IMG/VR virus record: IMGVR_UViG_3300020582_000005
DNA: 24,790 nt
Source: a virus
Lineage: Duplodnaviria; Heunggongvirae; Uroviricota; Caudoviricetes
Direction: 5' to 3' (one strand)
Positions 7,642-13,058 of the stretch are shown one piece after another. Within the stretch, counting starts at the first letter, position 1. Every line of letters starts with the position of its first letter. Below the pieces are notes generated by a model, which searched no databases, was not told the origin of the DNA, and worked only from the letters and a program-made list of their open reading frames with translations. The position numbers and the translations under genes are program-made.

Positions 7642-8324
7642 CATTAGACAAACACCATATAATACTTTACGGAGTGGCAATTTTATTTGCTCTTGGATTG
7701 ACTTACACAATTGAATCTAAAATAGCAGATAGAGCCGATCAAAAGTATCAAGATTTGAAAACACTATCTGATCAAAAAGACGCTACAAATGCACAATTTC
7801 AAAAGCAAATAACTGATCAAATGGCACAATTAGCCATGCAAAATTCACAATTGCAAGCTGAAAATACACAGCAAAATGCTATAGTTTCTAATTTGATAGC
7901 ACAGCTTAAAGCGAATAAAACAAAAGACGCTACGCTTCCACCGACAGACTTAGCTATGAGAATCCAAACGTTAGCTCCAGGTGGTACTGTGACAGTTCTA
8001 GCTGACGGCTACAAACTAGATCAGTCAGAGGCTGTTAGTGTCACTCAGGCTTTAGAGGAAGCTCCGATTTTGCAACAACAATACGATGCCGATCAAAAAG
8101 TTATAGACAATGATACGACTATCATTGAAAACGACGCAAAAACTTTAAACGGTGAAAAGCAATCTCATAAAAGTGATGTAGAAGCAATACAAGCTAAGCT
8201 CGACACAGCGAATCAAGAAATTAAAACAGTAAAAGATGACGCACGCAAGAGTAAATTCAAGTGGTTTATCGCTGGAGTTGTGACAGGTTTTACATTAGGT
8301 CGGATTCATAATCTAACATTCTGA
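7638..8324 (+). CDS. Membrane-anchored coiled-coil protein (spanin-like architecture possible)
   Basis: N-terminal hydrophobic helix (IILYGVAILFALGLTY), Gln-rich heptads, C-terminal KSKFKWFIAGVVTGFTLG; ATGA-coupled start at 7638. Confidence 0.65.
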   Translation: MTLDKHHIILYGVAILFALGLTYTIESKIADRADQKYQDLKTLSDQKDATNAQFQKQITDQMAQLAMQNSQLQAENTQQNAIVSNLIAQLKANKTKDATLPPTDLAMRIQTLAPGGTVTVLADGYKLDQSEAVSVTQALEEAPILQQQYDADQKVIDNDTTIIENDAKTLNGEKQSHKSDVEAIQAKLDTANQEIKTVKDDARKSKFKWFIAGVVTGFTLGRIHNLTF

Positions 8325-8800
8325 TGAAACGATGCACTCAGTGTGGTAAGAGAAAAGATGTTTCCGAATTTTATAATAGAAAAGCTGAGTGTAGAAAATG
8401 CAGTAATGCGAGGTCTGTTGAGTGGGCTAAGCAGCACAGAGAGCGAGCGACTAGGAACTCACGGAAGTGGAGGAAAAACAATCCAGAGAAAGTCAAAGAA
8501 ATAGTTAGGAGAAATCATCTAAAACGAAAGAAACTGTGTATTGTAAAATACGGTAAAAATGGTGGTTGTGTTTGTTGTGGCGAAAAAGAGATTAGTTTTC
8601 TTTCACTAGATCATATCAAAGACAACGGAGCGAAAGATAAAAGAAAGTATGGACCTGGAGAACGACTTCGTTATTGGATGATAATTAGAGATAAATTTCC
8701 AGAAGGGTTACAGACGTTGTGTTTTAATTGTCAGTGGGGAAAAAGAATTTATAAAGGATTCTGTCCGCATCATCCTAGGACAGACTTAAGGAAATCATGA
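8324..8800 (+). CDS. HNH-family endonuclease
   Basis: N-terminal CTQC..CRKC; YG..CVCCGE...FLSLDHI...LQTLCFNC. Confidence 0.8.
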   Translation: MKRCTQCGKRKDVSEFYNRKAECRKCSNARSVEWAKQHRERATRNSRKWRKNNPEKVKEIVRRNHLKRKKLCIVKYGKNGGCVCCGEKEISFLSLDHIKDNGAKDKRKYGPGERLRYWMIIRDKFPEGLQTLCFNCQWGKRIYKGFCPHHPRTDLRKS

Positions 8801-9537
8801 CTTCGTCACGTATAGTTTTTATCGATTTGGAAACGGCTCCGTCCTTGGGTTACGTTTGGGGAAAATGGGAGCAAAATGTTATAGAATTTGAAAAGGATTG
8901 GTATGTTTTGTCGGCGGCATACAAGAGAGCAGACGAAAAGAAGGTTCATGTTTTAGGATTAAATGATTTTCCAGAATACGCTGTGGATAAAGAGAATGAT
9001 AAACCTTTAATGCAGGCGCTGTGGAGCGTTTTAGATCAAGCAGATATCGTTATTGGACATAACTTGGATAATTTCGATGTGAAAAAAGCAAATGCTAGAT
9101 TTATTACTCATGGTATGCCACCTCCAAGCCCCTATCGAACATTAGATACTCTTAAGTTAGCTAGATCGGTTTTTAAATTTGACAGTAATAAATTAGACGA
9201 ATTGGGGAAGTACTTAGGTGTTGGTCGTAAGGTTCAACATACCGGGTTTAGTCTTTGGAAAGCTTGTATGTCAGGAGATGCTCAAGCTTGGAAGTTGATG
9301 AAAAAGTATAATGCTCAAGATGTTATTCTTCTTGAGAAAGTTTATAATCTCATGCGACCTTGGGCAAAAAGCCATCCTAATGTTAATCAAGGAGATTTAC
9401 AAGCGTGCCCAAAGTGTGGCTCTGCAAAAATTCAACGTCGTGGATTTAGTTATACACTACTGAGAAAGAAACAGCGGTATCAGTGTATGAGTTGTCTAGG
9501 CTGGCACTCAGGACCAGCTATTAAGGTGGATAAATAA
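8797..9537 (+). CDS. RNase H-fold DEDD 3'-5' exonuclease with C-terminal zinc ribbon
   Basis: IDLET, GHNLDNFD, KYNAQDV; CPKC...YQCMSC. Confidence 0.85.
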   Translation: MTSSRIVFIDLETAPSLGYVWGKWEQNVIEFEKDWYVLSAAYKRADEKKVHVLGLNDFPEYAVDKENDKPLMQALWSVLDQADIVIGHNLDNFDVKKANARFITHGMPPPSPYRTLDTLKLARSVFKFDSNKLDELGKYLGVGRKVQHTGFSLWKACMSGDAQAWKLMKKYNAQDVILLEKVYNLMRPWAKSHPNVNQGDLQACPKCGSAKIQRRGFSYTLLRKKQRYQCMSCLGWHSGPAIKVDK

Positions 9538-10092
9538 ATGTTACTTTTAGCTTTTGGTCACAAAGCTCGACAAGGTAAGGATACTGCTGGTCAGGGTGTA
9601 TTTGATTATTACGAAAAGAAGCGTCAGTTGGCGTTACGGCATGGTTTGCGAGTCATTCCGAGCGTAGGTATCTATCGTTTTGCCGAAGCGCTGTATGAAG
9701 AGGCACGACGTGATTACGGCATGACTGAGAAGGATGCTCCGTTGCTTCAGCGAATCGGTTCAGAGCGTCGAGCACAGGACCCGGAGTATTGGGTTAAGAA
9801 AGTATTTGAGAAGATCGCTTATGATAAGCCTCATATCGCCGTCATTACTGATTGTCGATATCAAAATGAAGTTGCAGCGGTTAAGAAATTTGGTGGATAT
9901 ACCGTCAAAGTTGAACGGTTGAACGAGAATGGTACTCTTTATTTGGCTACGGATCGTCCAGCAAATCATCAATCCGAAATCGATCTAGACAACTACAATT
10001 TCGATTATTACATTCGAGCAAAGACAGGCCAAGTAGCTTGGGTAGAACAGCAAGCAATTACATTAGCCGAAATGCTTAGAGGATTGAAGTAA
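9538..10092 (+). CDS. Deoxynucleoside monophosphate kinase
   Basis: GHKARQGKDT P-loop, LLQRIGSERR, ITDCRYQNE, HQSE..LD. Confidence 0.85.
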   Translation: MLLLAFGHKARQGKDTAGQGVFDYYEKKRQLALRHGLRVIPSVGIYRFAEALYEEARRDYGMTEKDAPLLQRIGSERRAQDPEYWVKKVFEKIAYDKPHIAVITDCRYQNEVAAVKKFGGYTVKVERLNENGTLYLATDRPANHQSEIDLDNYNFDYYIRAKTGQVAWVEQQAITLAEMLRGLK

Positions 10093-10093
10093 A

Positions 10094-10543
10094 ATGTCAA
10101 AACCTTTTAAAGAATTGCTTGAGAAAATGTCTCCTGAAGCTCAGCAGATGGTTAAAGAAAGAGTGGAGCAAATTAAAGAGGAGATGCTGTTTATAGAGGA
10201 ATTTAAGCGGCAGCAAGAAATTAATTACAAAATTAACGATGAACACGGTTTTGAAGATTTGTCTAGGGCAGCAAAGGGAACCGAGTATGAGATGGATAAT
10301 CTCGGTTTAAAGATCGCTCTGATACATAGCGAATTATCTGAAGCGCTGGAATCGTTCCGTCATGGTGATCCGGCAAGCGATCACATACCTGAGTTTACTG
10401 GTGCCGAAGAAGAGTTTGCCGATGTGATTATCAGAATTATGAATATCGCACAGGGCAGAGGATTGCGAGTAGCAGAAGCGCTGATAGCAAAGCAGGCATT
10501 TAATAATTCTAGAGAATATAGACACGGGGGAAAGAAATTCTGA
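10094..10543 (+). CDS. MazG-like (all-alpha) NTP pyrophosphohydrolase with extra N-terminal arm
   Basis: KIALIHSELSEALE...EEEFADVIIRI motif and C-terminal N..REYRHGGKKF. Confidence 0.85.
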   Translation: MSKPFKELLEKMSPEAQQMVKERVEQIKEEMLFIEEFKRQQEINYKINDEHGFEDLSRAAKGTEYEMDNLGLKIALIHSELSEALESFRHGDPASDHIPEFTGAEEEFADVIIRIMNIAQGRGLRVAEALIAKQAFNNSREYRHGGKKF

Positions 10544-10794
10544 TGAGAACTGAATACCATGTAGTTTTAAATCATGTTGGAAATCGTATTACAGTTTTTA
10601 GTCCGGGCGAGGGTCCTTCGGCATGGGACCCTAGTGGAGAGATTTGGGGAGTCGCTCGAACTTACGAAGTTGTCACAGATTCGTTTACCAAAACTCAAGA
10701 ATTGGTTCCGTTAGGAGAAGGTGTTCAAGTCTCTACTAGAGTTATGAAACAGAGATTTCCCAAGGAATTTGAATTAGATGCCCAAAAAGCTTAA
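10543..10794 (+). CDS. Hypothetical protein
   Basis: TGATG coupling. Confidence 0.6.
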   Translation: MRTEYHVVLNHVGNRITVFSPGEGPSAWDPSGEIWGVARTYEVVTDSFTKTQELVPLGEGVQVSTRVMKQRFPKEFELDAQKA

Positions 10795-11185
10795 AGTTTA
10801 TCTGGCAGCAGCTATTCATCGACGAGATGAAATGAAAATGGTCATCTCTGAAATAGAGCATCTGGCTGAAGTAACTAGTCGATGGGTCAGTGCTTCTCCA
10901 GTTGCTGGTGATTTGAATGAACATAGAAAGTTGTGGGCTAAGCGTGACTTGGCAGATGTTCGTAGAGCAGATGTTTTAGTAAGATTCACCGACGATTTAG
11001 ATCGAAAAACTGTCCCGGCTAAACTTGCCACAGGCTCTAGAATGGTTGAGATGGGAATCGCTTTAGAACGAAAGATGAGAGTGGTTGTAGTTGGTGGGTA
11101 TCAATGTATTTTTGATTATCTACCAGAAGTAATTCATTTGAAAAATGTAGTTGAGTTGAGAGTTTATTTGAGTGGTTTACAATAA
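10778..11185 (+). CDS. Nucleoside 2-deoxyribosyltransferase-like protein (NDT/Rcl fold) 1
   Basis: KVYLAA, RDLADVRRADV, GSRMVEMGIA (catalytic Glu context). Confidence 0.75.
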   Translation: MPKKLKVYLAAAIHRRDEMKMVISEIEHLAEVTSRWVSASPVAGDLNEHRKLWAKRDLADVRRADVLVRFTDDLDRKTVPAKLATGSRMVEMGIALERKMRVVVVGGYQCIFDYLPEVIHLKNVVELRVYLSGLQ

Positions 11186-11566: not shown

Positions 11567-11940
11567 TGACAGACCATTTGATCACATTTTACGGGCATGT
11601 AATTAAGGCGAAGCGGCTGGAACTAGATTTGCCTGAAGTAGTTTGGTTCAACAAGATCGTCCGGGTTCAAAATAAAGAACAGCTTGAACTAGAGATCAAT
11701 AAAGAAGCCGCCGTTATTATCATCAGGCAGCGGGGAATGGTCGTGACTAAGAATCAAGACCCCGGTCATGTGCAGGCTGGTGATGACGCAAGTTTTGAAA
11801 ATCGTATGTTTGTTCCAATGGAGATGTTTGGTTTCATAGATTGTGAAGTAAAGGATATCACCGGAGAGACGCCAAATTTTGAAGATGGCGTCACGTTTGT
11901 CGGTAACGGTTTAGAGAAGAAAGAATTGAAGGAGAACTAA
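11563..11940 (+). CDS. Hypothetical protein
   Basis: GTGA overlap; 125 aa. Confidence 0.65.
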   Translation: MMTDHLITFYGHVIKAKRLELDLPEVVWFNKIVRVQNKEQLELEINKEAAVIIIRQRGMVVTKNQDPGHVQAGDDASFENRMFVPMEMFGFIDCEVKDITGETPNFEDGVTFVGNGLEKKELKEN

Positions 11941-12125
11941 TGGTAAAGACAAGATTCAGTGTAGGTGATGTTGTTCAATTGAATAGCGGTGGTCCGAAGA
12001 TGACGGTTGTGGATGTTCAAGCACTTTCTGTGACATCTACGGCTAGTTATAGAACAGCGTGGTTTGATGAAGGTCGAGCGGTAGCATCTAATTTTCCCGA
12101 AGGTGCTTTGAAGAAAGGTAAATAA
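11940..12125 (+). CDS. YodC/DUF2158-family small protein
   Basis: FSVGDVVQLNSGGPKMTV...WFD...FPEGAL is characteristic; AAGGAG RBS. Confidence 0.85.
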   Translation: MVKTRFSVGDVVQLNSGGPKMTVVDVQALSVTSTASYRTAWFDEGRAVASNFPEGALKKGK

Positions 12126-12126
12126 A

Positions 12127-12339
12127 ATGGCGACAGTCTATCAGTGTGATCGTTGTAGTAAACAACAAGATGTTCGTCTATATGAATTACAGTTAGACGA
12201 TACAGAGTATGATAATTTGGCGGAACGACTTTGCGATTCGCAAAAGCCACTTCATCAAAGTTTGTGTATAGATTGCACCAAAGATTTAGGTGAATGGCAG
12301 CGTAATCCGAAAAAGAAATATAAGGTTCAGTTAGTATGA
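12127..12339 (+). CDS. Hypothetical zinc-finger protein
   Basis: YQCDRC...LCIDC; AAGGT RBS. Confidence 0.65.
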   Translation: MATVYQCDRCSKQQDVRLYELQLDDTEYDNLAERLCDSQKPLHQSLCIDCTKDLGEWQRNPKKKYKVQLV

Positions 12340-13058
12340 TTTGGCTTTCATTCGACGTAGAAACAACTGGTTTGGATGTAAACAATGATCGTGTCATTGA
12401 AGTAGGAGCGATCCTCTATTCGACAGGCCAGCATAAAGCGTTAGAGTCAGCTGGATTTCTGGTTAAATCAGACGTAGCGATTCCAAAAGAAGTTACCGAT
12501 ATTACCGGTATTCATCAGATAGCAGTAGATAAATTTGGTTTTGATTCATCAGCAGGATTAGAGAATGTTTTAGCTATGCTCGAATTGTCGGATGCGGTGA
12601 TTGGGCACAATATTAAAAGATTTGATAAGCGGGTTCTCGAATCGTGGTGCATCAGAGAGAAGCATTTATTGGGAAGCAAATTAATCATCGATACGATGAC
12701 CGATCTTCCGCAAGAGGGAAAGAAGTTAGGCTATATGGCTCTAGAGGCTCCTAGACCGTTCATTAATCCGTTTCCACACTCGGCATTCGCTGATGCTTTG
12801 ACAGTTATTTGTCTTGCGGATCAGTACGACACAGATTTGATTGTCAAACGAGCTAAGTCTCCGACGTTAGTTGTCCAAAGTCATCAGGCTCGTAATGCAA
12901 ATGATGACGCAAAGAAGTTTAAATTTCGTTGGAATCCCGACAGGAAAATGTGGTGGAAGGCGATCAAGGCAATTGATTTTGAAGCATTCCAGAAACAGGG
13001 ACTTCCGTTTGATATTTCAGTCCGAGAAGATTTGCACGCAGAAGATTTATTTGATTGA
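12336..13058 (+). CDS. DnaQ-like DEDDh 3'-5' exonuclease with C-terminal DUF5710-like module
   Basis: FDVETTG, GHNIKRFD, HSAFAD; C-terminal AKKFKFRWNPDRKMWWK. Confidence 0.9.
   Translation: MIWLSFDVETTGLDVNNDRVIEVGAILYSTGQHKALESAGFLVKSDVAIPKEVTDITGIHQIAVDKFGFDSSAGLENVLAMLELSDAVIGHNIKRFDKRVLESWCIREKHLLGSKLIIDTMTDLPQEGKKLGYMALEAPRPFINPFPHSAFADALTVICLADQYDTDLIVKRAKSPTLVVQSHQARNANDDAKKFKFRWNPDRKMWWKAIKAIDFEAFQKQGLPFDISVREDLHAEDLFD

Follow-up and report, generated by a model that had tools for sequence, protein, structure and literature searches.

An antitoxin arm of the HigA type at the N-terminus of a phage MazG-like enzyme: a candidate decoy antitoxin

Dmd of phage T4 acts against RnlA/LsoA. 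Counter-defence by orphan antitoxins and antitoxin mimics of phages has been described (PMC11825919, PMC11481870), and DarT is countered by AdfB/NADAR and by DarG-like enzymes (PMC11825919, PMC11481870, PMC13309987). Among phage enzymes with a MazG fold, Atd1 of Pectobacterium phage PcCB7V prevents the activation of MazF by lowering (p)ppGpp (bioRxiv 10.1101/2022.06.09.495361; Cell Rep 2023), and (p)ppGpp is reportedly not hydrolysed by the MazG of cyanophages (according to Rihtman 2019, as cited in PMC12846349). The present analysis concerns a 149-residue protein encoded on a 24,790-nucleotide stretch of DNA (hereafter the window) from a soil phage of the class Caudoviricetes (IMG/VR virus record IMGVR_UViG_3300020582_000005), in which a short N-terminal arm resembling that of HigA-type antitoxins precedes a MazG-like enzyme. 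Like the phage antitoxin mimics, this would be a partnerless phage gene whose product stands in for the host antitoxin during infection; the known mimics, however, are whole proteins or enzymatic antitoxins, whereas here the mimic would putatively consist only of the disordered neutralising segment, carried on an unrelated enzyme. Atd1, cyanophage MazG and MazZ of phage S-2L (7ODY) share the all-alpha fold and the metal motifs of the protein but have no antitoxin arm, while its own closest folds are dCTP pyrophosphatases and its gene lies in a nucleotide-metabolism context.

How such arms operate is known from HigA systems. The N-terminal segment of Vibrio cholerae HigA2 folds on the toxin HigB2 with picomolar affinity, and its peptide 3-22 neutralises the toxin (PMC5416850), while in Streptococcus pneumoniae HigBA the interface is formed by HigA residues 10-34, which precede the helix-turn-helix (HTH) domain (PMC7984235). 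Since a 20-residue peptide of V. cholerae HigA2 suffices, the phage arm could work alone. The architectural logic of these two antitoxins, i.e., a short N-terminal toxin-gripping segment that is disordered by itself (PMC5416850, PMC7984235), is the same as that considered here, although V. cholerae HigA2 shows no detectable sequence kinship to the antitoxin family of the arm and its toxin belongs to PF06296 rather than to Gp49, and S. pneumoniae HigA matches the profile of that family over the HTH and beta-lid only (E 7.5e-6). The same profile matches Mycobacterium tuberculosis HigA2 (7EWC, E 6e-17) and HigA3 (6LTY, E 4e-14). When these antitoxins are free, their N-terminal 25-35 residues are disordered or cleaved, and the analogy to V. 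cholerae HigA2 and S. pneumoniae HigA is the ground on which toxin binding has been assigned to these residues (PMC8420761, PMC7340258). Toxins of the Gp49 family have a part in abortive infection (PMC11980606). For the antitoxin closest to the phage arm, the partner toxin (L001:1135-1485) matches the C-terminal 100 positions of the PADLOC defence protein NsnC (E 1.4e-12) as well as phrog_3445 'toxin' (E 2.3e-25), and Gp49 domains are therefore found among phage morons as well as in candidate systems of defence.

The first 31 residues of the phage protein are like those of HigA-type XRE/HTH_37 antitoxins that partner Gp49/DUF891 toxins, represented by an antitoxin from Spartinivicinus ruber pB (WP_163836089.1) and by M. 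tuberculosis HigA2 and HigA3, and the likeness covers the length of the arm, its conserved positions, its predicted helix-turn-helix layout and its start at Met1. This relationship was recognized in a tblastn search of 7.3 Gb of plasmid sequence with residues 1-40, which returned six weak matches, four of which hit XRE/HTH genes that immediately follow a PF05973 toxin gene. Three plasmid matches were inspected, and all three correspond to N-termini that align at Met1 (the start lying at, or within a few residues of, that position), each of the three genes being located immediately 3' of a 'RelE/ParE family toxin' gene that Pfam assigns to PF05973 (Gp49/DUF891). A hidden Markov model (HMM) was then derived from the 31 arm columns of 45 homologues of one such antitoxin, chosen by full-length similarity. 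Residues 1-31 of the phage protein align with positions 1-31 of this model without a gap, at 31-35 bits and an E-value of ~1e-12 (Z=1), while the best of 200,000 composition-preserving shuffles of the arm reached 16.7 bits. When 12,287 six-frame pieces, drawn from 87 fetched loci and from the window itself, were scored, the arm had an E-value of 1.1e-7 and the next piece from outside the family reached 11.5 bits; genuine antitoxins score 27.8-55 bits and the phage arm 30.6. As a safeguard against circularity, a stricter HMM omitted the three antitoxins that had been found with the arm as well as P0124, the closest homologue of P0121. This model still recovered the phage arm at 23.6 bits (E 2.9e-5), compared to 17.1 and 8.1 bits for the held-out genuine antitoxins P0122 and P0123, respectively.

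Up to 15 of 31 residues are identical between the phage arm and the arm of an individual antitoxin, while arms within the family share as few as 6 of 31 with one another. All conserved arm positions are present, without an insertion or deletion, namely M1, K3, P4, F/L5, L8, S13-P14-E15 and E30-M31, M31 being the last conserved position of the arm (in the pair EM). An AlphaFold2 (AF2) model of the whole 149-residue protein, with a mean predicted local distance difference test (pLDDT) score of 92.9, places a helix at residues 3-10, a turn at 11-13 and a further helix from residue 14. The model of a genuine antitoxin (P0153) has the same layout in its arm part, with helices at 3-10 and 14-29, which are followed by the HTH and a C-terminal hairpin. 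Residues 1-34, searched by structure against the ESM Atlas, mainly retrieved 100-residue HTH_3/HTH_37 proteins. Based on these comparisons, residues 1-31 are truly homologous to the N-terminal arm found in XRE/HTH_37 antitoxins with Gp49/DUF891 (HigB-type) partner toxins.

The fragment stops exactly at the boundary between arm and HTH. Genuine HigA-type antitoxins possess an HTH, a beta-lid hairpin and an upstream toxin gene, whereas the phage protein has none of these and continues from the arm into a MazG-like enzyme. Genuine family members match PF13744 and PF01381, while the phage protein yields no match to HTH_3, HTH_37 or HTH_31. The C-terminal beta-lid that serves dimerisation (GGELEVVARFPDG) is absent from its sequence, and the hairpin seen in the P0153 model (E86-89/E92-95) has no counterpart in the phage protein model. 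An original prediction, made from the letters of this DNA, had read the protein start as MSKPFKELLEKMSPEAQQMVKERVEQIKEEM, which is identical to that of the open reading frame (ORF), and had described an antitoxin-like N-terminal arm ahead of MazG in which the MazG-like domain takes the place of the HTH; the end-to-end match of the arm to the HMM, the MazG-like character of residues 32-149 and the lack of an HTH match agree with this description. The comparison of the arm residues with HigA/XRE N-termini that had been proposed as a check did match antitoxins, both by arm HMM and by tblastn, and residues 1-31 are not a normal part of phage MazG proteins. The literature search returned no paper on an antitoxin arm fused to MazG, in accordance with the statement that no description of such a fusion was known. 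Phage surrogates of antitoxins are known as such; what is new is the form, in which a type II antitoxin contributes its disordered neutralising segment alone, grafted onto an enzyme.

Several other searches were made with the arm. Taken alone, it returned nothing useful from Pfam, NCBIfam or the PDB sequences, where designed helical proteins were found, and tblastn against 50,697 phage records gave no match. A word-indexed search with residues 1-40 retrieved only the protein itself and one close homologue (P0002). The sole phmmer match with an E-value below 0.001 for residues 1-35 among 1.84 billion representatives, a 2129-residue ankyrin-repeat protein (P0168), was rejected as a chance motif: its repeat linker (..VEKLLEKMSPEAINA.. 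/ ..IVEKLLEKMSPEAINA..) recurs dozens of times and resembles arm residues 6-16, and the arm HMM assigns it no score. Separately, the arm region (window positions 10094-10198) has a weak NCBIfam match to positions 14-42 of the 257 positions of the LPO_1073/Vpar_1526 model (E 0.008, 15.8 bits), which could represent another family with an arm-like N-terminus. The nearest ESM Atlas clusters by language-model features are three clusters of 31-38-residue 'hypothetical proteins' with 70-90 members each (scores 0.91-0.94); these could be stand-alone arms or truncated antitoxin N-termini.

The remainder of the protein is assigned to the MazG superfamily. The 149-residue product matches phrog_3301 'pyrophosphatase' (E 1.7e-26) and phrog_5658 (E 5.6e-22), although the MazG models of Pfam and NCBIfam gave no match to it. 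About 980 homologues were found, most of which are 112-120 residues long and cover only residues ~31-149 of the query; relatives are named 'NTP pyrophosphatase (non-canonical NTP hydrolase)' by JGI, NTP denoting nucleoside triphosphate. In an alignment of 30 homologues (A1), residues E80, L81, S82, E83 and A84 are invariant, as are E105, E106, E107, A109 and D110, so that the core carries the metal signature E80-x-x-E83(-x-x-E86) plus E105-E106-E107-x-x-D110, which is the ExxE...ExxD signature of all-alpha NTP pyrophosphatases. The top Foldseek matches of the AF2 model are human and mouse DCTPP1 (dCTP pyrophosphatase), integron iMazG, Escherichia coli MazG, S-2L MazZ and HisE. Nearly all of the listed matches fall in the MazG superfamily, with probabilities of 0.85-0.96, but with E-values of ~0.2 and query-normalised template-modelling (TM) scores of 0.37-0.48. 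The protein is accepted as a MazG-like NTP pyrophosphatase, its activity being predicted from motifs and fold. House-keeping of deoxynucleoside triphosphates (dNTPs) by this core is at least as likely as alarmone hydrolysis, because approximately 1000 homologues are arm-less, the gene lies in a nucleotide-metabolism and replication context, and the closest folds are dCTP pyrophosphatases. For the same reasons the other half of the original prediction, i.e., hydrolysis of an alarmone or signal, found no support.

The reading that is favoured here, tentatively and with rather less than even confidence, is that the protein is an HTH-less decoy antitoxin displayed on an enzyme scaffold, as suggested by the homology of the arm and by analogy with the HigA systems outlined above. 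The phage would have captured only the toxin-neutralising segment of an antitoxin, which it would show on a stable and probably oligomeric enzyme. During infection the labile antitoxin of the host would decay, freeing a Gp49/HigB-type mRNase toxin from a toxin-antitoxin (TA) defence system of the host or of a rival element; the arm would then fold onto the freed toxin and hold it inactive, upon which abortive infection would fail. Since the protein is without an HTH, the host operon would not be repressed, and the action of the protein would be that of a decoy antitoxin and nothing more. Most likely the MazG core still serves its ordinary function in the nucleotide pool, and an additional anti-alarmone role is speculative.

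A number of points weigh against this reading. By core sequence the closest relative of the phage (L004/L018), a 61-kb soil contig with a core that is 97% identical, is armless. Carriers of the arm are rare among the approximately 1000 homologues, and comprise this phage, P0002 and, probably, a 151-nt low-depth freshwater contig (run X3). The arm differs by one amino acid in P0002, and by one synonymous and one non-synonymous change in X3, and these alleles are too few to measure selection. N-terminal extensions in the MazG family are generally variable and unrelated, and the N-terminal position therefore tolerates arbitrary sequence. Toxin binding by the arms of Gp49-partnered antitoxins is itself inferred from analogous HigA systems, and searches with a single sequence or a five-sequence profile found no solved structure of a Gp49-family toxin. 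Finally, the neat boundary of the arm could stem from microhomology.

In this MazG family the arm is an exception rather than the norm, as approximately 1000 homologues are without it. In alignment A1, arm residues 1-31 are common only to the phage protein and P0002, which is 94% identical overall and has nine differences, one of which lies in the arm. In other close relatives the N-terminus is extended by 8-45 unrelated residues or not at all, and the MazG N-termini of cultured phages (Bas95, Pondi, Silvergun, phiPMW and SteveFrench) are unrelated to the arm. The 20-residue extension of L019/P0007 (MKDPLAPEIDK...) was considered as a shortened arm and dismissed, as the HMM gives it no support. 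The length at which this MazG-like gene is annotated also varies, with 245 residues in Escherichia phage Bas95 (L088:1192-1929) and 146 in Pondi (L089:1489-1929); the start of the Bas95 gene has probably been called ~99 codons too far upstream.

The X3 contig bears on the start of the gene. Translation could in principle begin at the internal ATG of M31 (10184), which would yield a normal 119-residue MazG and leave the arm untranslated or as an open upstream frame. The usual length in the family is indeed 119 residues, and AAAGAGGAG stands just 5' of this ATG, although a spacing of ~0-2 nt between the two is too short. The arm ATG at 10094, by contrast, lies 1 nt past the stop codon of the preceding deoxynucleoside monophosphate (dNMP) kinase gene, with an AGAGGA of its own 10 nt upstream, in a window where genes are tightly packed, and it opens a protein-level match of high significance. 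In the X3 contig the arm has a synonymous change at V24 and its M31 codon is changed to GAG (M31 to E), and for this reason the internal start is not conserved, yet the frame is intact; the arm frame is open in three data sets, one of which is without the internal ATG. The junction 5' of the arm (...AGAGGATTG...TAAAATG) also precedes the slot gene of L004 described below. Among the sequencing runs listed, none was of RNA. A start at M31 is considered extremely unlikely.

The interval between the kinase and MazG genes varies in content among relatives. The kinase-to-MazG gene order is kept in L004, L019, L020 and L021. In L004 the slot between the two genes contains, as the counterpart of window positions 10094-10186, a separate 53-residue ORF (MKFEAFKDK..., L004:7816-7977) that has no PHROG match and whose start is placed like that of the arm, and the L004 MazG itself begins with MKFLDDGQL-FISEFKRQQ. 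In three further syntenic relatives just 8-20 unrelated residues precede the core. The core lies 32-65 nt from the kinase stop codon in the simple forms, whereas this distance is 100 nt in the phage under study and 195 nt in L004. A second soil metagenome contains the L004-type allele, which joins position 10086 to 10188 with 196 other letters in between. This slot looks like a hot-spot of cassette exchange, and from the differing slot contents of the relatives it follows that the arm is an insertion or replacement specific to its lineage, in a junction that varies. The swapping of alleles in such a slot between near-identical phages fits what is usual for arms-race genes.

The same observations bear on a serious rival explanation, according to which the arm is a neutral recombination scar. 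A higA-like gene or higBA cassette would once have occupied the kinase-mazG slot, and its first 31 codons would have been joined in frame to mazG, by an in-frame deletion or by illegitimate recombination, to be tolerated as an inert extension by an enzyme that would take any sequence at its N-terminus. It is a serious rival because only a tiny lineage has the arm, at a junction that varies and where the nearest relatives carry other content, and because many family members have unrelated N-terminal extensions of 8-45 residues. The join could have been guided by sequence similarity on its two sides: GAGATG is accompanied by AAAGAGGAG, which resembles a ribosome binding site (RBS), and EM-L.I/AE.. 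occurs on both sides, the phage reading EM-LFIEEFK and the antitoxin EM-TLAELRQ. The last arm codons, AAAGAGGAGATG (10175-10186), furthermore resemble the RBS-plus-start of the L004 MazG gene, GAGAGGAGAATAATG (L004 ~7958-7976), a likeness that possibly represents microhomology at the recombination joint. Possible donors exist in the form of full higBA modules in phage records. Against a scar, the arm is whole and free of indels, its score is that of a genuine family member and not of a decayed remnant, and its boundary coincides with that of a functional module. G+C content at third codon positions (GC3) is 0.387 in the arm and 0.39 in the core, so that the arm is not a fresh import; this match of codon composition to the phage suggests residence for some time without decay. 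Moreover, the arm recurs on different flanks, the kinase end of the X3 contig being L004-like in appearance. A neutral scar is regarded as a real possibility, though short of a probable one.

A role of the arm in cis was also considered, in which it would be a protease-sensitive degron that times MazG turnover, or a helical extension that alters oligomerisation or localisation. Antitoxin arms are the labile, Lon/Clp-sensitive part of the molecule, those of HigA2 and HigA3 being disordered and readily cleaved (PMC8420761, PMC7340258), AF2 predicts a single long helix (residues 14-50) that runs into MazG helix 1, and other family members bear other N-terminal add-ons. There is, however, no reason for a degron or an oligomerisation helix to retain all of the family-specific arm residues, and close relatives function without such an extension, which makes this explanation unlikely.

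The absence of a toxin gene from the vicinity, as the original prediction had it, agrees with the gene content of the window: none of its 20 small ORFs matches PF05973, and the gene upstream of the arm encodes the kinase. The protein might instead be the antitoxin of a phage toxin that is encoded elsewhere in the ~112-kb genome, i.e., one half of a split phage TA pair in which MazG has replaced the HTH. The 24.8 kb read here represent part of that genome, Gp49 toxins are common phage morons (phrog_3445), and antitoxin domains are known to swap between systems. Against a split pair, PF05973 is missing not only from the small ORFs of the window but also from five related phage contigs, two of which are at least 92% complete, and the antitoxin family has no match in these contigs either. 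This arrangement is deemed very unlikely.

The favoured decoy-antitoxin reading can be extended to the proposal that phages repeatedly graft neutralising HigA segments onto MazG enzymes, forming a previously undescribed class of HTH-less 'arm-on-enzyme' decoys that would stop TA-based abortive infection at the level of the toxin, and possibly also further upstream by hydrolysing nucleotides or alarmones; this broader proposal is doubtful.

The gene is embedded in a tightly packed, one-strand block of replication and nucleotide-metabolism genes that makes up the window, with genes for endonuclease VII, an HNH endonuclease, exonucleases, a dNMP kinase and a primase/helicase. The features of the gene and of its surroundings are listed in Table 1. 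The product of the gene at 10778-11185 may take part in nucleotide-pool functions, and the two DnaQ-like genes lie less than 3.5 kb apart.

Table 1. Positions in the window of the arm-MazG gene, its parts and signals, and neighbouring genes
Feature	Position	Strand	Basis or remark
Whole ORF, 149 residues plus stop; antitoxin arm followed by MazG-like NTP pyrophosphatase (predicted)	10094..10543	+	ORF list; phrog_3301
HigA-type antitoxin arm, codons 1-31 (MSKPFKELLEKMSPEAQQMVKERVEQIKEEM)	10094..10186	+	Arm-only HMM, shuffles, stricter HMM
MazG-like all-alpha core, residues 32-149	10187..10540	+	Homologue alignment, Foldseek
SELSEALE, residues 79-86, first metal-binding (ExxE) helix motif	10328..10351	+	Alignment A1
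EEEFAD, residues 105-110, second metal-binding motif	10406..10423	+	Alignment A1
AGAGGA, Shine-Dalgarno-like, within the end of the kinase gene	10078..10083	+	Read from the sequence
Internal ATG (M31), AAAGAGGAG directly 5'	10184..10186	+	Possible alternative start, poor spacing
dNMP kinase	9538..10092	+	phrog_139, E 1.8e-22; stop 1 nt before arm ATG
83-residue downstream gene	10543..10794	+	Start overlaps MazG stop (TGATG); no Pfam or PHROG match; 100% identical in L004
135-residue gene, two genes 3' of MazG	10778-11185		Weak nucleoside 2-deoxyribosyltransferase-like Pfam match, E 0.013
61-residue gene in replication block	11940-12125		DUF2158 match, E 7.3e-12; uncharacterised small-protein family
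DnaQ-like 'DNA polymerase exonuclease subunit'	8797-9537		phrog_403, E 2.8e-86
DnaQ-like 'DNA polymerase exonuclease subunit'	12336-13058		phrog_192, E 1.3e-22

In bacteria, type II TA systems of the RelE/HigB/Gp49 kind rank with the most common genes. What part they play in phage defence is a matter of continuing debate, one reason being that few countermeasures of phages are known. If the decoy reading is true, the protein would provide direct genomic evidence that toxins of this kind matter in infection, with Gp49/DUF891 as the target family, and it would show how simply counter-defence can evolve, with ~30 stolen codons hung on a stable enzyme. It also offers a small and cheap test object, i.e., a 31-residue peptide for which a natural arm-less allele is available as a control. 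Should the arm be inert, it would still illustrate cleanly how chimeric N-termini arise when phage genes recombine as mosaics at their junctions.

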